Of a DNA stretch of 64,000 bases, positions 32,293 to 44,832 are shown piece after piece (position 1 is the first letter of the stretch; each line of letters starts with the position of its first letter). Position numbers and translations under genes: made by a program. The stretch lies in sequence record OR525701.1; one strand, given 5' to 3'. A model generated the notes under the pieces. The model was not told the origin of the DNA. It saw only the letters and a program-made list of their open reading frames with translations, and ran no database searches. Origin of the DNA: Escherichia phage vB-Eco-KMB38.

Positions 32293-32622
32293 TTATACTC
32301 TAGGCTTTTGAGCTTGTTTGGTATTGGATTCCCATGCAGCTTTGGTAATTTTGTTAGCGGCATAACCAAAGGCATTAGATAGAACACCTTTAGAGTTGAA
32401 TACATCCAATCCAATAAGTACACCGGCTGTGTTAAATTTAGGAGCAAAGTACGCATTAGTTTTAGAAAGAGCTTTTTTCAATTCAGGGTCTTGAACCAAA
32501 CCATCAAAAACGCCTTTACTATTTACTTTATATGTTACTTTGGGATTTTTACCTTCTTCGATAGCAGCTTTCTGTTCCGCAGATAATGTAACTTCAGTGA
32601 TAAACTCTTGATACGTTTTCAT
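32293..32622 (-). CDS. internal protein (capsid-targeted, CTS MKTYQEFITE)
   Basis: N-terminus matches the T4 internal-protein capsid targeting sequence consensus MKTYQEFIAE. Confidence 0.65.
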   Translation of the reverse strand: MKTYQEFITEVTLSAEQKAAIEEGKNPKVTYKVNSKGVFDGLVQDPELKKALSKTNAYFAPKFNTAGVLIGLDVFNSKGVLSNAFGYAANKITKAAWESNTKQAQKPRV

Positions 32623-32647
32623 TTTGTTCCTATTGTTTTAATTTATG

Positions 32648-32962
32648 TTATTCTTTAGGGAAGTTTTTAGAGTATGCATCATAAAGTTTATTACCAATAC
32701 GACGGAAGACTTTAGCTGCAAAACGGTTTTCAGGGTTTTTAATCATGATTTGCATCATGTAAGTTCCTGCATCCGAAAGAGCTTCTTCATAGTACCCATT
32801 AATTTCTTTAAGAGTCCTACGTTTACCGCCAGGACCATCAACAGTAATTTTCCATTTACCTGTAGAAGTGCGGCTCGGTGGTTCAACTTGTTCAATCCAA
32901 ATATAACCGCCTTCAACGCGTTGGTTGGCGGATTCTGCAATAAATTCTTTATACGTTTTCAT
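32648..32962 (-). CDS. internal protein (CTS MKTYKEFIAE)
   Basis: CTS at N-terminus; body unrelated to neighbouring IP. Confidence 0.65.
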   Translation of the reverse strand: MKTYKEFIAESANQRVEGGYIWIEQVEPPSRTSTGKWKITVDGPGGKRRTLKEINGYYEEALSDAGTYMMQIMIKNPENRFAAKVFRRIGNKLYDAYSKNFPKE

Positions 32963-33025
32963 TTTTGTTTCCTTGTTTGTTTTGATAGAGCAATTATACC
33001 ATATTAATACTTAAGCGTAAACCGT

Positions 33026-33286
33026 TTAAGCTTTACCGCCAGAAATAATTCCGAAGTTGTTAAAATCATATCCAATATCGCCAACGTCTACTTTAGGGCT
33101 TGCTACAACATAAGCAATTTCACTACGTTTTGCATAGGTGTTGATTTCTTTACCATCGCCACCTAAGAAAGAATATCCATTACGTTTTAACGAGCCAAAG
33201 TCTTCCGCATCACCAATGAAAGCTTTAACTTTAAATTTAGGACCTTTGGCATCTGCTTCAAAGATAAATTCTTGATACATTTTCAT
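33026..33286 (-). CDS. internal protein-like (CTS MKMYQEFIFE)
   Basis: CTS-like N-terminus. Confidence 0.6.
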   Translation of the reverse strand: MKMYQEFIFEADAKGPKFKVKAFIGDAEDFGSLKRNGYSFLGGDGKEINTYAKRSEIAYVVASPKVDVGDIGYDFNNFGIISGGKA

Positions 33287-33292
33287 TTTTCC

Positions 33293-33706
33293 TTAGTAAA
33301 TTGATTTACCATAGTATTTGTACCAAGTCGGACGTTGAGCAATTTTTTCATCTAAGCGTGCTTGACTTATCGCAATGGACGCTTCGGACGGGACATAATT
33401 ATTACGAAATTCGGCAGGTATGTCGGAAATATCCTGGACCGTCGTGTCCTTTATTTTGAAACCGCGTTTCAAACATTCAGCGATTAGCTCGATTTGACGT
33501 AAACGTAAAAATTCGAGTTTGTCGTAAAAGAATGTTACGTGACCTGTGCCTAAGATAAATGTTGGAGAGATTTTAAAATCCTTTACACGTTTACCATTTT
33601 GGACATGTTTACGGACTGCACCAAATACGCGTGGTAATTCACGATACTCAGCCATAAGATGTTGGTCGGTCAGTTCAGAAACAAGTGTTAAATTGATACG
33701 AGTCAT
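33293..33706 (-). CDS. denV: endonuclease V (pyrimidine dimer DNA glycosylase)
   Basis: [35 protein letters not shown]...[13 protein letters not shown], near-identical to T4 DenV. Confidence 0.9.
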
Positions 33707-33733
33707 AATTTCCTCCAAGTAGTTGATGAATGT

Positions 33734-33763
33734 ATAGTATCAAAACCCTTGGAGGAAGTAAAC
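33734..33763 (-). promoter_or_regulatory. sigma70-type early promoter
   Basis: GTTTAC-N18-TACTAT on minus strand upstream of denV. Confidence 0.4.
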
Positions 33764-33764
33764 A

Positions 33765-34046
33765 CTATTTTTCTGAAGCGCCTGAAATATATTTTTCAAG
33801 ACGTTGTTTCATCAGCGAGCCGTTCTTAGCGATTTCTTCCGGTTTATCGCACATACGCAACAAGGCTTCAAGCTTAACGATATCACTGGTGCGCTCAAAT
33901 TTGCGAGTATCTATCTTACTAGCAAGTTCAGAAATACGTGCTAATAGACTTTCAGCTTCAACCAAAGCTGCACCTAGCTTAGTTGCAAATGTGTCAGTAG
34001 CTTCGTTAAGAATAGATTCTGATAAAAATTCACTATATGTTTTCAT
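33765..34046 (-). CDS. internal protein-like ([13 protein letters not shown])
   Basis: Start set at the MKTYSEFL Met; helical body. Confidence 0.6.
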
Positions 34047-34531
34047 ATATACGCTTTCCAAGTTCCTGTTTTAAATGTTGATATTACGCGTTTCGCGCGA
34101 TTGGGTGTCTGACGATACCATTTAGATTGGGCTAGATTTACTGCCGCTTCGTCCCAACGTTTCTGTTGAAGCATACGAAGAGAATTAGTAAAACCGGCGA
34201 CGCCTGCTACACCCATTTGGAAGACCATATTGACCAATGCACAACGACGAACCGCATCTAAAGAATCGTATACCGGTTTAAGTTTAGCATTACCCAAGAT
34301 TCCGCGAACGGCTTTATCAACGTCTTCATTAAATAGCTTTTCAGCCTCATCAAGGGTAATTGGACCGTTGCATTTACGGCCGATCATTCTGTCAAGTTCA
34401 GCTTTAGCTACGGCTAAAGATGGGTTCTTTGTTACTAAATGGCCTATGCCAATCGTCCAAAAGCCTTCAGTGTCTTTGTATAAAGTCAGTCTAAGACCTT
34501 CGTCATTACGAAGCATTTCAAATATATTCAT
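34043..34531 (-). CDS. e: lysozyme (endolysin) e
   Basis: [32 protein letters not shown]..., close to T4 lysozyme; ggaggtatt SD. Confidence 0.9.
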
Positions 34532-34565: not shown

Positions 34566-35024
34566 TTATAGGAGGGTAGTGAGCACCTTATATAATGATT
34601 TGCCCATTACATATTCCCATTGAGAAGGTTTAATTAAAGCGAATGCATCAAATTCAGGAATCTGACGTCCGTCCGGGAATGTATGATAGGAATTACAAAC
34701 ACTATTTCTGAATTGCTCGTGCTCTACAGGGATGGTATATAGGAACAGGTGAATATTCTTATTGTCTGAGTAATGATGTTCACCTAGGTCTTTCAGGAAG
34801 GCAGGGTCATATTGTGTAAACCCAGTTTCTTCTTCGCATTCACGAATAGCGGCTTCGATAGGAGATTCGCCGGGCTCGACACGACCTTTAGGAATATCCC
34901 ACCGATGAGCTAAAGAACCTTTAGGACGAGAACCAGTTACACGCCCCATGAATAATTCTTTATCTTCGGTAAGGAAAATAATACCAGCTGATAGTTCTTT
35001 CACTTTATTTTTCTTACTCATCAT
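34566..35024 (-). CDS. nudE: Nudix hydrolase NudE
   Basis: Nudix box GRVEPGESPIEAAIRECEEETG; start at ATG overlapping upstream stop (ATGA). Confidence 0.75.
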   Translation of the reverse strand: MMSKKNKVKELSAGIIFLTEDKELFMGRVTGSRPKGSLAHRWDIPKGRVEPGESPIEAAIRECEEETGFTQYDPAFLKDLGEHHYSDNKNIHLFLYTIPVEHEQFRNSVCNSYHTFPDGRQIPEFDAFALIKPSQWEYVMGKSLYKVLTTLL

Positions 35025-35512
35025 CTCAAATTCCTGCATTCAGTAATAAAACGTTCAACTTCATTATTCTTGGCCTTTATCTTGGCTTTATGTTCTTGTA
35101 AACTACTTTTAATAAGATTAATAATGATGGCGGCGGTACCGCCGCCAATGATGCCACCAACACCACTTATGATACTAGATGCTAATAAGATAGCAATAAT
35201 ATCAACAAAACCGAAAGAACTCACCTTAGTACTGAAAAACCATATAGACGGTGCAAATATAATCCATCCTGTTATCCATTGACACTTATTGAAAAACTTT
35301 TCAAGCTCAGCTTGAGTTGTTCGTATTACTTCATCGATAGGTTGATATCCATTAATGTATCTGTTCACGATAATACCTGCTGGCTGGTCGATTTTAAATG
35401 CTTGACAATGGCGTTTCACTAAGTATGATGGACATCCTGTCCAATCTATAGAATAATATGAAATACCTTCGTCGCCATCGTCCATGTTTGTCCAGTGAAT
35501 TTTATGTATCAT
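35021..35512 (-). CDS. hypothetical membrane protein, C-terminal FITECR motif
   Basis: 163 aa, glycine-rich TM segment, ends ERFITECRNLR. Confidence 0.5.
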   Translation of the reverse strand: MIHKIHWTNMDDGDEGISYYSIDWTGCPSYLVKRHCQAFKIDQPAGIIVNRYINGYQPIDEVIRTTQAELEKFFNKCQWITGWIIFAPSIWFFSTKVSSFGFVDIIAILLASSIISGVGGIIGGGTAAIIINLIKSSLQEHKAKIKAKNNEVERFITECRNLR

Positions 35513-36199: not shown

Positions 36200-36505
36200 T
36201 TATTTTCCTCGACATTCTTTAATGAAATTTTCTAGATTGGTAGATTCAATAGCTTTTTTACGAGCTTCTGCGTGTTCTTCTTCAGACAATTTACGTTTAT
36301 AATTGACCCAGACATTATGGTCGAAACCAGTCGTGGCATATAATATCAATGCTCCAACGAATAGCAAAAACGGCGATAAGAATACAAAACCAGGAACACC
36401 ATCCATATCGTAAGCCTTTTGTAATACTGCAACAGAAAGAGCTACGTAAAAAGGTGATGCAAGTATTGTTAAAAGACCAATTCGGTTGGTTTCTGTTAAT
36501 TTCAT
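36200..36505 (-). CDS. hypothetical membrane protein, C-terminal FIKECR motif
   Basis: 101 aa, two TM helices, ends LENFIKECRGK. Confidence 0.5.
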   Translation of the reverse strand: MKLTETNRIGLLTILASPFYVALSVAVLQKAYDMDGVPGFVFLSPFLLFVGALILYATTGFDHNVWVNYKRKLSEEEHAEARKKAIESTNLENFIKECRGK

Positions 36506-37860: not shown

Positions 37861-38058
37861 TTAGCAAGAATAACTAGACGATACCCAGCCTTGAACAGTA
37901 ATGCTATTATTAGATAATGAGATTGCGTTCTGGAGATTCAGACCTGCGTTATCTTCAATCCATAATGTAACTTCTTCGCGTTCTTCTGTTGCAATTTGGA
38001 ACAGGTTTTCCAGGGCAGCTACTGCCGTACGTACAGCACAATCTAATTCACGAGACAT
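37861..38058 (-). CDS. hypothetical protein, family ending W-V-S-S-S-x-x-C (member 1)
   Basis: 65 aa, ends GWVSSSYSC. Confidence 0.5.
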   Translation of the reverse strand: MSRELDCAVRTAVAALENLFQIATEEREEVTLWIEDNAGLNLQNAISLSNNSITVQGWVSSSYSC

Positions 38059-38067
38059 ATGGTTTCC

Positions 38068-38340
38068 TTAGCAAGTGTGAGAAGATGCGATCCAACCACC
38101 AGTTTCGAGGCTCAGGTTGTAGTCGTATTGGTAAACGTCAGCCCATTCAGCATAGCCGTTTTTTGTACAACGTTCAAGATCGGCTTTAAGCTGTCCGGGT
38201 GAATGATATGTTCCACCCATACCATAAGCTGGATACAAGTCGAATGTTGTGTTTTGTTTATCAGCAATTTCTTTGGCAGCCTCAATAGCTGCATAGATTT
38301 TTGCTACAGCTTCAGCCAGTTCGGTTTGTTCTTTAGACAT
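38068..38340 (-). CDS. hypothetical protein, same family (member 2)
   Basis: 90 aa, ends GWIASSHTC; internal GMGGTYHSPG. Confidence 0.5.
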   Translation of the reverse strand: MSKEQTELAEAVAKIYAAIEAAKEIADKQNTTFDLYPAYGMGGTYHSPGQLKADLERCTKNGYAEWADVYQYDYNLSLETGGWIASSHTC

Positions 38341-38349
38341 AATGATTCC

Positions 38350-38655
38350 TTAGCACAACGCAGAAGACGAAACCCAAGCACCTTCAGTAATAACGTAACC
38401 ATTACCTTCACGCTTAACATCGCCACCATTATTTTCAATTTCATCTTTCATCCACTGGGATACGATTTCACCCTTAGGATAATAAGTACGACCGCTACCA
38501 TAATCACCTACAGAAAATGATACAGAATATTGGTCTGCGATCTTTGTTGCTTCTTCTTCGATACGTTCAGCTTGATTCAGAAGTTTATAAATTGCATCTG
38601 AAGCGGATTTGGCATCATTAAACTCTGGTACTTTAATTTCAATAATCTTACTCAT
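38350..38655 (-). CDS. hypothetical protein, same family (member 3)
   Basis: 101 aa, ends AWVSSSALC; internal YGSGRTYYPKG. Confidence 0.5.
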   Translation of the reverse strand: MSKIIEIKVPEFNDAKSASDAIYKLLNQAERIEEEATKIADQYSVSFSVGDYGSGRTYYPKGEIVSQWMKDEIENNGGDVKREGNGYVITEGAWVSSSALC

Positions 38656-39011
38656 TTTCTACATTCCTTAATAAAGTTTTCTATTGTTTCATTTTCACGT
38701 CTAGCTAGGAGTTCATTATAACTAATCATTTGAGAAGCGTAAACCTTTTTATTTTTCTTGTTATGGTTTATAAAATCGTAGTAAAAATAGACTACAGTAC
38801 AAAAGGATGCGATGGATGCAAAGGCTTGGGTATACCGTAAGTCCTGCCATTGGTCTGTGAATCCACCAGTGTTCCCTATAAATCCTAACACAACGCCGTC
38901 AATAAGAAATCCAACTAATCCAAAGGCAAATCCCATGCCAATACTCATAATAAAAATTAGAATGTTCTCACCAAGAGAAGGCCATACGGTTAAGAGTTGA
39001 GGTTTTTGCAT
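38652..39011 (-). CDS. hypothetical membrane protein, C-terminal FIKECR motif
   Basis: 119 aa, two TM helices, ends IENFIKECRK. Confidence 0.5.
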   Translation of the reverse strand: MQKPQLLTVWPSLGENILIFIMSIGMGFAFGLVGFLIDGVVLGFIGNTGGFTDQWQDLRYTQAFASIASFCTVVYFYYDFINHNKKNKKVYASQMISYNELLARRENETIENFIKECRK

Positions 39012-39385
39012 CTTATTTCCTTAACGAATTCCATAGCTTCTTCATATTCATACTTTTTAACAGCTTCATCATACTGAGCTTGGGCTTTTGCGCACTGAAC
39101 TTTCCACTCGCGAACTCGAGCTCTGTGATGACGGCCTTGGTGCCAATATCCTGCCCAATTAATAGGCATTAATAAAAACGGTACAATAAGTGGTGCGACG
39201 AACATTAATGAAAACGCTGCATCAGACGATATAACTTTATTGGAATCTAAAATAGCTCCTATAATCATAAAGATTAAAAATGCTAAAGCTAAAATAGGGC
39301 CAAATAGTACTTCGTTTGGGATTAATTTACGTTTGTATTCGTATGCCCATGGCTTAATTGGCATGTACAGGGTTGGCTTTGACAT
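38990..39385 (-). CDS. hypothetical membrane protein, C-terminal FVKEIRCK variant
   Basis: Start set at MSKPTLY ATG inside the upstream ORF end; TM helices. Confidence 0.45.
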   Translation of the reverse strand: MSKPTLYMPIKPWAYEYKRKLIPNEVLFGPILALAFLIFMIIGAILDSNKVISSDAAFSLMFVAPLIVPFLLMPINWAGYWHQGRHHRARVREWKVQCAKAQAQYDEAVKKYEYEEAMEFVKEIRCKNLNS

Positions 39386-39956
39386 ATTCTCTACATTCCA
39401 TAATAAATTGCTCAAGGATTAAATTGTTAGTGAAATTAGGACTAACAACCATAGTTTCATAAAGCGCATCAATAGCACTTAAAGCATCAACTCTTTTAAG
39501 CAAAGGCTTGCCTTCATACATAGTTTCAGAATCGACGATTAACGTAAAGTAATATTTTTTATTATCGACTAGAACTTCTGTGTCGATATAAAACATATTA
39601 GACCTCAGAAGCTTATCTCTAAAACCATAATAATCTTCTGAACGTTCGCTGATATATTCCCATTCAGTGTTTAAACAACAAACAGACCACGTAGGAGCAA
39701 CGAAATCAGTGAATCTAATATCATGGTCTGCAACTAGTTTAGCAATAGCTCCGATATCATGAATCATAATACCTGGGGCTAATAAAGATTTTCTGCTATG
39801 GCTAGCCGTTTTCTCAGTGGTCTCATAAGAAGCTGACCAGTACCATTTACGTCCGGTTGCAACATATCGTAATGAATCAACTAAAGACGTAGGTGGATTT
39901 ACCTTATCTCGGAACTCTTCGAACATCGAGTCAATATCATTATTTTGGTTTCGCAT
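39354..39956 (-). CDS. hypothetical soluble protein with FIMECREY near C-terminus
   Basis: Start at second ATG (MRNQNND) which follows an aaggag SD. Confidence 0.5.
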   Translation of the reverse strand: MRNQNNDIDSMFEEFRDKVNPPTSLVDSLRYVATGRKWYWSASYETTEKTASHSRKSLLAPGIMIHDIGAIAKLVADHDIRFTDFVAPTWSVCCLNTEWEYISERSEDYYGFRDKLLRSNMFYIDTEVLVDNKKYYFTLIVDSETMYEGKPLLKRVDALSAIDALYETMVVSPNFTNNLILEQFIMECREYVKANPVHAN

Positions 39957-39974
39957 GTTAACTCCTTTATCATC

Positions 39975-39997
39975 CAAAAGGAGGACCGGAGTCCTCC
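39975..39997 (-). terminator. intrinsic terminator
   Basis: ggaggac-tccg-gtcctcc hairpin followed by UUUUGG on the minus transcript. Confidence 0.55.
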
Positions 39998-41605: not shown

Positions 41606-42070
41606 TTATTTAATTTGTTTAGCAGACCAGATACGGTCTTTAATAAGTTTTTGGATATCTTCAACATACTCAAGGCTATGAGCGTGAGGATTATCTTTGA
41701 AACTATGTGCTCGTGCCAGTTTCTGGCCTTCTGTTTTGATTACTAAAAGCTCTTTAAGAATTGCTTCATACTTAGAAATAATTCCTTTGGCGATATTTTT
41801 TTCTTGAGCTGTTTTAGGGTCCGCTTTTGGCGCAGGTGCTTTACCTGTAGCTTTCTGGAACAATTCACCTGATGCAGCTAGGCTTTTAAAAACTCGGCTA
41901 ACAGTATTAGCATTAGTAAAACCTTCGGCTTTAAAATCTCTAATAAAACGGAAACGTTCTTCATCGGAGGCGTCTTTGTAAGAATATTTACCTGCTTGAA
42001 TTGCTGCAATCGCAGCGGCTTTTACATCTGAACTAGATTGTTCAGTCAAAAATTCAGCGTATGATTTCAT
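41606..42070 (-). CDS. internal protein-like (CTS MKSYAEFLTE)
   Basis: 154 aa with CTS-like N-terminus, Ala/Lys-rich body. Confidence 0.55.
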   Translation of the reverse strand: MKSYAEFLTEQSSSDVKAAAIAAIQAGKYSYKDASDEERFRFIRDFKAEGFTNANTVSRVFKSLAASGELFQKATGKAPAPKADPKTAQEKNIAKGIISKYEAILKELLVIKTEGQKLARAHSFKDNPHAHSLEYVEDIQKLIKDRIWSAKQIK

Positions 42071-42115
42071 GTTGCTTTTCCTAAGTTAATTAACTTATCT
42101 ATTTATTATTATACC

Positions 42116-42143
42116 AAAAAGCCCCAACCTTTCGGAAGGGGCT
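42116..42143 (-). terminator. intrinsic terminator (third identical copy of the hairpin repeat)
   Basis: aaaaagccccaacctttcggaaggggct identical to 25945 and 26568 copies. Confidence 0.55.
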
Positions 42144-42801: not shown

Positions 42802-42821
42802 ATTTTCCTCACTTAAAGTTG

Positions 42822-42896
<75 letters not shown>

Positions 42897-42902
42897 AATA
42901 TA

Positions 42903-42976
42903 TGACCCAGACCAGATTCGAACTGGTAACCTTTCCCTTATGAGGGGACTGCTGCTAACCGTTGAGCTACAGGGCC
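42903..42976 (-). tRNA. tRNA with anticodon CAT (Met, or Ile2 if lysidine-modified)
   Basis: GGCCCTGTAGCTCAACGGTTAGC...CCTCATAAGG...ACCAG-TTCGAAT-CTGGT; anticodon loop CTCATAA; D-stem pairing imperfect by hand. Confidence 0.6.
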
Positions 42977-44481: not shown

Positions 44482-44769
44482 TTACAGAAGAGTTTTTGCA
44501 ATAATTTTAAGCTGAGCTACAGAAATATGCTTAGCTTTAAACAGTGCAGTCTCTTCAGCCGGAGAGATAACAATAGTAGCGCCATCTTTCTTAGCAGACC
44601 ATCCATCCCCTAAGTAAACAGTACCTTTTACTTCTTCACCATCAACCAGACTAATCATTGGTTTACCCTCACGTCCTTTATTTGTTTTAATAACTTCAGA
44701 AGTAAGGGATGCTTCGGTCAGAGTAGAAACGTTAGCAACAGGTGATATAAATTCTTTATAGGTTTTCAT
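44482..44769 (-). CDS. internal protein (CTS MKTYKEFISP), T4 ipI position
   Basis: 95 aa with CTS N-terminus located just upstream of 57B as ipI is in T4. Confidence 0.6.
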   Translation of the reverse strand: MKTYKEFISPVANVSTLTEASLTSEVIKTNKGREGKPMISLVDGEEVKGTVYLGDGWSAKKDGATIVISPAEETALFKAKHISVAQLKIIAKTLL

Positions 44770-44803: not shown

Positions 44804-44832
44804 ATAGTAACACACCATCATCCTTATGTAAA
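44804..44832 (-). promoter_or_regulatory. sigma70-type early promoter with inverted repeat
   Basis: GTTTAC-N17-TACTAT; arms aggatgat/atcatcct. Confidence 0.45.

Follow-up and report, generated by a model that had tools for sequence, protein, structure and literature searches.

The analyzed window is a 64,000-nt (64 kb) stretch of DNA from Escherichia phage vB-Eco-KMB38 (OR525701.1), which is an RB69-like Mosigvirus (T4-type). The region is 100% identical to EP02SG and 97.7% identical to RB69, and its gene order agrees with that of both RB69 and T4. It contains six genes whose products begin with the capsid targeting sequence (CTS) of T4 internal proteins. Four of them (ipA, ipB, ipC and ipD) reside in the Ip locus e-denV-vs.8, and ipI occupies the Ip locus tRNA.4-57B. 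The sixth, ipE, belongs to e.8-tRNA, a third variable locus that holds CTS genes in RB69 and Bas37 as well. All features described here are on the minus strand, with coordinates given relative to the window. A sequence-only reading of this DNA had described a cluster of four CTS genes. The four genes are present, but their contiguity is broken between the third and the fourth by denV (endonuclease V, 33293..33706), a conserved context gene that encodes no internal protein and separates ipC from ipD. The lysozyme gene e (T4-type, 34043..34531) is likewise a conserved flank of the locus and serves as context only.

When all six frames of the 64 kb were translated and searched with M[KR]x[YF]x[ED]F[ILVM], six matches were returned, each at the start of an open reading frame; the chance expectation estimated from 200 shuffles was a mean of 0.02 matches and a maximum of 1. 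A looser version of the pattern revealed no extra candidate in the window. These matches confirmed the six CTS-bearing reading frames listed previously, all on the minus strand and with the coordinates and N-termini then reported. The targeting residues Tyr4 and Phe7 follow Met-Lys in all six leaders, residue 8 is Ile or Leu in all six, and Glu10 is found in every leader except that of ipI. Experiments with T4 IPIII showed that residues 4 and 7 matter for targeting and residues 8 and 10 for processing, and that the prohead protease gp21 cuts after L/I-x-E (PMC9026906). The earlier expectation that a protease site follows the N-terminal similarity was borne out at the sequence level, as an L/I-x-E motif ends all six leaders, I/L8-x-E10 in five of them and L17-T-E19 in ipI. 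Codons 1-10 specify the leaders of ipA (MKTYQEFITE, 32593..32622), ipB (MKTYKEFIAE, 32933..32962), ipC (MKMYQEFIFE, 33257..33286) and ipE (MKSYAEFLTE, 42041..42070), in which residues 8-10 read I-T-E, I-A-E, I-F-E and L-T-E, respectively. The leader of ipD spans codons 1-15 (34002..34046) and contains the protease motif twice, as L-S-E (residues 8-10) and as L-N-E (residues 13-15). The leader of ipI, MKTYKEFISPVANVSTLTE, spans codons 1-19 (44713..44769); it begins with MKTYKEFISP, lacks Glu10 and carries L-T-E at residues 17-19. Further L/I-x-E motifs occur inside the cargos, making the mature sizes uncertain. The protease gp21 and the scaffolding-core proteins gp22, gp67 and gp68 are all encoded by RB69; their genes lie outside the 64 kb window.

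ipA (32293..32622) encodes a 109-aa CTS internal protein that is 98% identical to its orthologue RB69ORF123c, with a predicted mature form of 99 aa and a pI of 9.7. Its family was found in 90 phage records, every one labelled 'hypothetical', and its pN/pS ratio relative to RB69 is 0.11. A phmmer search against 1.8 billion proteins retrieved long proteins, two of the four scanned consisting largely of the MBG repeat (YGX type, PF18676), a comparison in which the summing of scores over repeat proteins inflates significance. ipA was approximately 33% identical to single MBG repeats, profile-profile comparison gave a 25% probability over 38 columns, and the Pfam search returned no match to this repeat. 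Division of ipA into two NUMOD1-like helix-turn-helix units was considered and dropped at a Pfam E-value of 0.15.

ipB (32648..32962) encodes a 104-aa CTS internal protein that belongs to the Ip10 family, as it shares 72% identity over 104 aa with SP18gp124, annotated 'Ip10' (E=3e-46). It was found in 189 phage records, including Escherichia, Enterobacter and Kosakonia phages, and its counterpart in RB69, RB69ORF124c, carries a frameshift. An AlphaFold2 model of ipB, built from an alignment of three sequences, had a mean pLDDT of 47.9 and was unusable.

ipC (33026..33286) starts 7 nt past the stop codon of denV and encodes an 86-aa CTS internal protein, the orthologue of RB69ORF125c. It matches phrog_2667, annotated 'internal head protein', with E=6e-20; 217 phage records contain it, and its pN/pS relative to RB69 is 0.18. 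ipD (33765..34046) encodes a 93-aa CTS internal protein orthologous to RB69ORF127c. It is a member of the Ip5 (IpV) family, sharing 47.6% identity over 84 aa with both PST IpV and Bas37_0261 (E=8e-24), and matches phrog_3499 'internal head protein' (E=1e-46). The mechanically called reading frame of ipD extends to a TTG codon at 34061; we placed the start at the ATG at 34046-34044 since it overlaps the stop codon of the lysozyme gene e as ATGA and agrees with the annotation of RB69. In the HIDEN-SEQ preprint (10.1101/2025.11.20.689424; Data S3), insertion mutants of Bas37_0261, which is the homologue of ipD in the Ip5 family, became depleted when E. coli CFT073 was the host (log2FC -2.09, with a reported adjusted p of 0) but not in the next host tested. 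The effect on CFT073 could be polar, as the adjoining gene 57B was depleted too.

ipE (41606..42070), located between e.8 and the tRNA genes, encodes a 154-aa CTS protein of the RB32ORF133c/Bas37_0244 family. The family is represented in 511 phage records, none of which has a label other than 'hypothetical'; ipE is 75% identical to Bas37_0244, and its homologues retain the CTS. The AlphaFold2 prediction (mean pLDDT 75.5) is all-helical with two domains. According to the HIDEN-SEQ data for the two hosts that we consulted, Bas37_0244 had no fitness effect. A putative composite terminator/promoter is located upstream of ipE (42100..42143). It is composed of a stem-loop (42143-42120), a T-run, TGGTATAAT (42116-42108) and the late-promoter-like AATAAATA (42107-42100). 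By its sequence, this element resembles the PeSL elements known from T4-like phages (PMC4122927). The terminator scan did not flag the stem-loop upstream of ipE.

ipI (44482..44769) encodes a 95-aa orthologue of T4 internal protein I (IPI), with which it shares 86% identity, thereby confirming the previous assignment of this gene, which lies between tRNA.4 and 57B, to the ipI position. It belongs to Pfam family PF11634 (IPI_T4; E=2.6e-49, 165.5 bits for a cut-off of 25), residues 20-95 aligning with positions 1-76 of 76. The same residues align with residues 1-76 of PDB entry 2JUB (E=7e-41), and residues 20-95 are the predicted equivalent of the mature protein IPI*. T4 IPI and ipI are alike in length (95 aa), in locus (tRNA.4-57B) and in their 19-residue leader ending with L/I-T-E (I-T-E in T4), and differ by a few substitutions in the mature part. 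Furthermore, T4 DNA is glucosyl-modified, whereas the phage carrying ipI has an arabinosyl modification.

The sequence-only reading had found none of the six cargos recognizable. This part of it has to be revised, since 44482-44769 is IPI, 32648-32962 is Ip10 and 33765-34046 belongs to the Ip5 family, and since the RB69 orthologues of 33026-33286 and 33765-34046 (ipC and ipD) carry the RefSeq label 'internal head protein'. No Ip number was found for ipA, ipC or ipE in the annotations examined.

Sequences matching the sigma-70 consensus, the consensus match being all that defines them as promoters, precede ipB (32993..33021; TTTACG, a 17-nt spacer and TATAAT, with TG before the -10 box) and ipI (44804..44832; TTTACA, a 17-nt spacer and TACTAT, with TG). 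Such matches are no commoner in the ipB region than in shuffles and thus are weak evidence. The exact T4 late promoter TATAAATA was absent upstream of all six genes, and one-mismatch matches near e, ipC, ipB and ipE occurred at roughly background density.

Beyond the leader, the six proteins diverge completely, as previously claimed: Smith-Waterman alignments of residues 11 to the end gave z scores of at most 1.07 against shuffles for all 15 pairs. Profile-profile comparison of 12 leader-stripped cargo families assigned every pair a probability of 3% or less. PHROG 3966 strongly matched both ipA and ipB, suggesting paralogy, a relationship that we rejected as direct alignment and profiles revealed similarity in the leader only. 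As the two proteins are unrelated beyond it, PHROG 3966 appears to merge two families. No similarity to the cargos of T4 IPII and IPIII was detected in the window proteins, BLASTP matches ending at residues 11-18 and profile probabilities being 3% or less. Likewise, a search in the window for the cargo of Ip6/Bas37_0260 aligned the leader alone (profile probability of 0.7% or less).

On a broader scale, 35 CTS proteins from 9 phages sorted into 13 unrelated cargo families, and the same cargo family recurs in different loci. Full-length homologues with 35-75% identity and a retained leader exist in other genera. A word-indexed homologue search recovered 2-10 close relatives per protein, which limited alignment depth. 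Relative to RB69, pN/pS ranges from 0.11 to 0.18, with substitutions mostly synonymous. The best explanation is that the leader is a portable delivery tag and that unrelated cargo cassettes are exchanged among the e-denV-vs.8, e.8-tRNA and tRNA.4-57B hotspots.

The class to which these genes belong and its likely job, the blocking of host restriction enzymes, are already known from the established literature and are textbook T4 biology. According to later papers that cite the work, hypervariable CTS-tagged internal proteins at these loci have been recognized since 1994 (Repoila et al. 1994, cited in PMC3012670, PMC12373910 and PMC4122927). T4 IPI (Ip1) is an injected inhibitor of the type IV restriction enzyme GmrSD of CT596 (PMC3012670), in line with the earlier description of IPI as an anti-restriction factor. 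Ip2 and Ip3 block distinct GmrSD variants, those of ECOR21 and ECOR17, respectively, and all proteins of the Ip loci were proposed by the authors to act likewise on GmrSD variants (PMC12373910). RB69 IPI has been reported to inhibit a GmrSD enzyme and to have four residues unlike those of T4 IPI, which may influence the GmrSD variants that it blocks (PMC6024577). By orthology with T4 IPI, ipI would be the only one of the six with a known target. The CTS-bearing protein Bas37_0260, which we identified as Ip6 (IpVI), inhibits McrBC (10.1101/2025.11.20.689424) and shows that the internal-protein class reaches past GmrSD to another type IV enzyme. Bas37_0260 resembles the window genes in its CTS leader and type of locus, and its Ip6 cargo has no homologue in the window.

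Among the other known systems, T4 IPII and IPIII share the leader MKTYQEFIAE, the protease motif and the e/denV hotspot, and they are likewise small and non-essential. The arrangement differs in that both T4 genes lie between e and denV, whereas the window has one gene there and three between denV and vs.8. When expressed in the host without its CTS, T4 IPIII rescues a deletion phage on a restrictive strain. Ip4-Ip10 of T-even phages similarly combine a single leader with interchangeable cargos; the Yersinia phage PST, for example, has IpIV, IpV and IpVI, and phages Pol and SP18 have Ip10. The Ip5 gene of PST and Bas37 resides in the ipI locus, whereas its counterpart in the window, ipD, adjoins e. 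T4 Alt is also delivered with the DNA before phage gene expression and processed by gp21, but this large enzyme carries a propeptide at each end and lacks the 10-residue CTS. The Dar proteins of phage P1 likewise enter the host together with the DNA and act ahead of phage gene expression, by a packaging route other than that of T4 internal proteins. Dar proteins are not known to use the 10-residue CTS.

We consider it likely that all six genes encode T4-type internal proteins that are tagged, processed and injected, with swapped cargos that probably act as nuclease blockers. Their initial description as candidate injected anti-defence proteins fits both the CTS and protease-site tests and the published model (PMC3012670, PMC9026906, PMC12373910). 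Since Tyr4/Phe7 and L/I-x-E are kept in all six, we read the proteins as putatively packaged, processed and injected, and we hold packaging and processing to be highly probable from the leader sequences. Our literature search found no virion proteome of any Mosigvirus. The leader, of about 10 residues (15 in ipD and 19 in ipI), would bind the scaffolding core so that the protein is built into the prohead, a step suggested by the conservation of Tyr4 and Phe7. gp21 would then cut after the Glu of L/I-x-E, freeing the mature cargo within the capsid; the motif points to this cleavage, and for ipI so does the start of the solved IPI* structure. By analogy with T4, the cargo would exit with the DNA at infection and act in the host cytoplasm ahead of phage gene expression. 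Each cargo would most likely bind and block one variant of a first-response nuclease. The leading candidate targets would be type IV enzymes, of the GmrSD family or otherwise, for which the arabinosylated cytosines in Mosigvirus DNA are the point of attack. One GmrSD-family enzyme, BrxU, cuts arabinosylated Mosigvirus DNA (PMC13390438). By analogy with the characterized internal proteins, an anti-defence function for most of the six is, on balance, the expectation that we favor.

Sequence and profile searches of ipA to ipE against the PDB returned nothing below E=0.1, NCBIfam returned no match, and Pfam yielded only sub-threshold noise (NUMOD1, CsgH). Fold prediction, which had been proposed as a check on each cargo, gave two helical domains for ipE and an unusable model for ipB; it provided no functional clue, and no hint of an inhibitor mechanism emerged from the fold analysis.

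The proteins could instead be generic, basic, DNA-associated contents of the head that neutralize charge or assist DNA packing or ejection without a specific host target. The predicted mature pI of 9.6-9.7 for ipA, ipB and ipE and of 9.0 for ipI is compatible with such a role, as are the approximately 1000 internal-protein molecules embedded in the DNA of the T4 head (PMC3012670) and the lack of a recognizable enzymatic or inhibitor fold in any cargo. However, with a pI of 6.3 ipD is not a basic protein, ipC is no more than weakly basic at 8.2, and IPI* is basic yet a specific inhibitor. Furthermore, a generic role fails to explain why 13 unrelated cargo families move between loci or why Ip1, Ip2, Ip3 and Ip6 have strain-specific phenotypes. 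We consider this explanation unlikely.

Quite unlikely, too, is that the cargos are injected effectors of host takeover, acting for example on transcription, translation or the envelope rather than on defence, like the packaged ADP-ribosyltransferase Alt. T4 Alt shares with the internal proteins its route into the head by way of the core and the protease (PMC9026906), and the two-domain helical architecture predicted for ipE and the weak resemblance of ipA to a surface-protein repeat domain would suit such effectors. However, the cargos measure 76-144 residues and match no catalytic domain in Pfam, NCBIfam or the PDB, and all four characterized small internal proteins are nuclease inhibitors. 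Moreover, Bas37_0261 and Bas37_0244, the homologues of ipD and ipE, were scored non-essential on K-12 (HIDEN-SEQ supplement), as expected of proteins dispensable on a permissive laboratory host. RB69 agrees with this, since its ipB is frameshifted, the leader of its ipD is scrambled and its ipA has Ala10, defects which indicate that individual copies are dispensable in the laboratory.

A further reading is that cassette shuffling has left some of the six genes as leader-bearing remnants, poorly expressed, unpackaged or decaying. In its favor are the ipB and ipD defects of RB69, a truncated gene in the ipE locus of RB69, the match of the last 23 residues of ipC to a separate 38-residue PHROG, the occurrence of an isolated fragment in phage HEMP5, and the failure to find clear late promoters near the six genes. 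We consider this reading very unlikely given that each of the six genes in the window has an intact reading frame and leader, that substitutions relative to RB69 are mostly synonymous, and that intact identical or near-identical copies persist in dozens to hundreds of independent isolates.

Within the preferred reading of the six genes as injected anti-defence proteins, the leader might serve as a general delivery platform and not only against GmrSD. It may be, though we consider it less likely than not, that at least one of the five uncharacterized cargos blocks either a first-response defence outside the type IV enzymes or, by a new fold, a GmrSD-like variant specialized for arabinosyl-DNA. 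The best candidates for a target outside type IV enzymes are ipA (90 genomes) and ipE (more than 500 genomes, in the third Ip locus), as their families have never been labelled internal proteins.

The six genes provide a list of candidate injected nuclease inhibitors in a phage group with arabinosylated DNA. Their value resides in specific target assignments, none of which can be supplied by sequence alone. Pairing the five uncharacterized cargos with their targets would extend the map drawn for T4, in which one internal protein corresponds to one restriction-enzyme variant, and could aid both the understanding and the engineering of host range in RB69-like therapeutic phages.

Scanning the six-frame translation of the window for the T4 capsid targeting sequence (CTS; pattern M[KR]x[YF]x[ED]F[ILVM]) returned six matches, each at the start of an ORF, against a mean of 0.02 in shuffled sequences; a looser pattern yielded no further candidates in the window. 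All six ORFs lie on the minus strand: ipA (32293-32622, 109 aa), ipB (32648-32962, 104 aa), ipC (33026-33286, 86 aa), ipD (33765-34046, 93 aa), ipE (41606-42070, 154 aa) and ipI (44482-44769, 95 aa). These results bear out the sequence-only reading, which had placed the T4 leader at the same six starts. The 30 leader nucleotides differ among the genes at synonymous positions, which argues for conservation at the peptide level and against a remnant of a recent DNA duplication. The upstream regions have little in common except a purine-rich ribosome-binding site. The ATG of ipD shares ATGA with the lysozyme stop codon, and ipC starts 7 nt past denV.

Beyond the leader, the cargos proved as divergent as had been claimed: all 15 pairwise Smith-Waterman scores, from residue 11 to the end, fell inside the shuffle distributions. 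A CTS scan of the window and eight relatives (T4, RB69, PST, SP18, AnYang, fGh-Ecl04, Melville and slur03) identified 35 CTS proteins, which BLASTP sorted into 13 cargo families. Eleven of these, together with Bas37 sequences that included a full-length member of the RB69ORF149c family, gave 12 leader-stripped families for profile-profile comparison, in which no pair exceeded 3% probability. We observed that one cargo family can occupy different loci among the phages compared. Ip5 adjoins e in the window and slur03 and sits at the ipI locus in PST and Bas37, while the RB69ORF156c family is found at the ipI locus in RB69 and beside denV in SP18 and AnYang. PHROG 3966 gives full-length matches to both ipA and ipB (32293-32962; E about 1e-32 to 1e-34); it seems to fuse two families via their common leader, as the two cargos are without similarity. 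The C-terminal 23 residues of ipC (33026-33094) match a separate 38-residue PHROG (35655), and phage HEMP5 has only this fragment (85% identical), both possibly being remnants of cassette exchange.

Amber suppression of T4 IPIII assigned targeting to leader residues 4 and 7 and processing to residues 8 and 10, with the prohead protease gp21 cutting after Glu in L/I-x-E (PMC9026906). Tyr4, Phe7 and Ile/Leu8 are present in all six proteins of the window, and Glu10 in five. ipI carries Pro10, but has L-T-E at residues 17-19, where T4 IPI has I-T-E, and the IPI* structure (PDB 2JUB) aligns to ipI residues 20-95, i.e. begins directly past the Glu of this motif. A putative L/I-x-E site thus accompanies the CTS similarity at the leader end in all six proteins. 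A second predicted site is present in ipD (residues 13-15), and ipE in Tequatrovirus phages has FLNEAVLNE. The RB69 genome encodes gp21 and the scaffolding core proteins gp22, gp67 and gp68, all outside the window region. A literature search found no virion proteome for the genus Mosigvirus.

The 2.5 kb around the finding match Escherichia phage EP02SG at 100% identity, phage PTK at 99.1% and RB69 (genus Mosigvirus, subfamily Tevenvirinae) at 97.7%, and the genes are arranged as in RB69 and T4. Read as transcribed, the minus strand carries nudE, e (lysozyme), a small ORF, denV, three small ORFs and vs.8; its upstream part carries 57B, ipI, tRNA.4-tRNA.2, tRNA genes, a small ORF and e.8-like genes. 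The tRNA genes (42820-42976, minus strand) are only tRNA-Arg(TCT) and tRNA-Met(CAT), as in RB69; T4 and Bas37 have 8-10 at this position. Five neighbouring e.2-e.5-like ORFs on the minus strand between 35021 and 39977 (35021-35512, 36200-36505, 38652-39011, 38990-39415 and 39354-39977) all carry F[IV]xE[CI]R 1-11 residues from the stop (e.g. ...NFIKECRGK, ...NFIKECRK), a common C-terminal tag with no other occurrence in the six-frame translation; three of these ORFs are predicted membrane proteins per the RB69 annotation. Three tandem small ORFs within 37861-38655 on the same strand (equivalents of RB69ORF136c-139c) end in W[VI][SA]SSxxC (37861-38058, WVSSSYSC; 38068-38340, WIASSHTC; 38350-38655, WVSSSALC) and probably form a small paralogous family that shares a conserved Cys-terminal tail.

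Differences from RB69 in the CTS genes are mostly synonymous (pN/pS of 0.11 for ipA and 0.18 for ipC; two non-synonymous and three synonymous changes in ipB). Furthermore, each cargo has full-length homologues with the leader kept: 90 phage records for ipA, with a Dhakavirus relative at 36% identity, 189 for ipB, down to 52% in Enterobacter and Kosakonia phages, 217 for ipC, 496 for ipD and 511 for ipE. This comparative evidence indicates that the six ORFs are real genes. Compared with window 32293-34046, the copies in the RB69 reference (L001/L002) are damaged: ORF124c (ipB) carries a frameshift beyond roughly codon 84, the leader of ORF127c (ipD) is scrambled to MKTYMNFYQNLSLNE, as might result from a compensated frameshift, and ORF123c (ipA) has Ala10 in place of Glu10. 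RB69 also has two CTS genes absent from the window, ORF149c at the ipE locus and ORF156c adjoining ipI (L002 22795-23235 and 26028-26354).

The ipE locus, between e.8 and the tRNA genes, is a third variable locus; Bas37 has two adjacent CTS genes there, whereas RB69 has a truncated CTS gene differing from ipE. The intact Bas37 version of ORF149c, bas37_0243 (L012 1029-1592, 187 aa), is scored 'Essential' by HIDEN-SEQ (1/48 TA sites hit), which is unexpected in an internal protein. Upstream of ipE are a stem-loop, a T-run and a TGGTATAAT element, an arrangement like that of the promoter/terminator cassettes which have been suggested to drive shuffling in T4-like hyperplastic regions (PMC4122927). 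The six genes have no exact late promoter nearby. One-mismatch matches, at background density, precede e (which would serve ipD too), ipB and ipE and occur in the denV end before ipC; sigma-70-like matches with an extended -10 lie upstream of ipB and ipI.

Contrary to the earlier view that no cargo was recognizable, at least three of the six are. ipI is IPI (86% identity to T4 IPI; PF11634, E=2.6e-49), ipB is Ip10 (72% identity to SP18gp124, annotated 'Ip10, similar to Ip10 of bacteriophage Pol'), and ipD is an Ip5-family protein (47.6% identity to PST IpV and to Bas37_0261). RefSeq RB69 and PHROGs both annotate ipC and ipD as 'internal head protein'; ipA and ipE are 'hypothetical' in all records listed, their PHROGs being of 'unknown function'. 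Only ipI matched a solved structure, with none for ipA-ipE. Fold prediction, suggested as a check, gave an AlphaFold2 model of ipE (pLDDT 75.5; N-terminal helical domain, low-confidence Pro/Lys-rich linker, long helical hairpin) but no informative structural neighbour, and the ipB alignment was too shallow for a usable model. A full HMMER search with ipA recovered its own family and long proteins, two of the four scanned being mostly MBG (YGX-type) repeats; with no Pfam score and a profile-comparison probability of 25%, the resemblance is a lead. The mature proteins are predicted to be basic (pI 9.0-9.7), with ipC (8.2) and ipD (6.3) as exceptions.

IPI* inhibits the CT596 GmrSD enzyme (PMC3012670), and IPIII is required on ECOR17 and active without its leader if expressed in the host (PMC9391042). 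Ip1, Ip2 and Ip3 each inhibit one GmrSD variant without cross-protection, and every Ip-locus gene has been proposed to target variants of this family (Silas et al. 2025, PMC12373910). The CTS protein Bas37_0260, an McrBC inhibitor (HIDEN-SEQ preprint, 10.1101/2025.11.20.689424), is Ip6 (from MZ501089) and has no homologue in the window. Insertions in Bas37_0261, the Ip5 homologue, were depleted on CFT073 (log2FC -2.09) and not in the next host, and Bas37_0244, the ipE homologue, had no effect in either (HIDEN-SEQ supplementary tables); a polar effect may underlie the CFT073 signal, given that depletion extended to the adjacent 57B gene. Arabinosylated cytosines occur in Mosigvirus DNA, which the GmrSD-family enzyme BrxU cleaves (PMC13390438); therefore, type IV enzymes are a relevant threat to this phage. 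The observation of six CTS-bearing genes with unrelated cargos is thus confirmed, and their interpretation as candidate injected anti-defence effectors amounts in essence to the published model of an already described gene class, which makes the finding an ordinary one for a T4-type phage.
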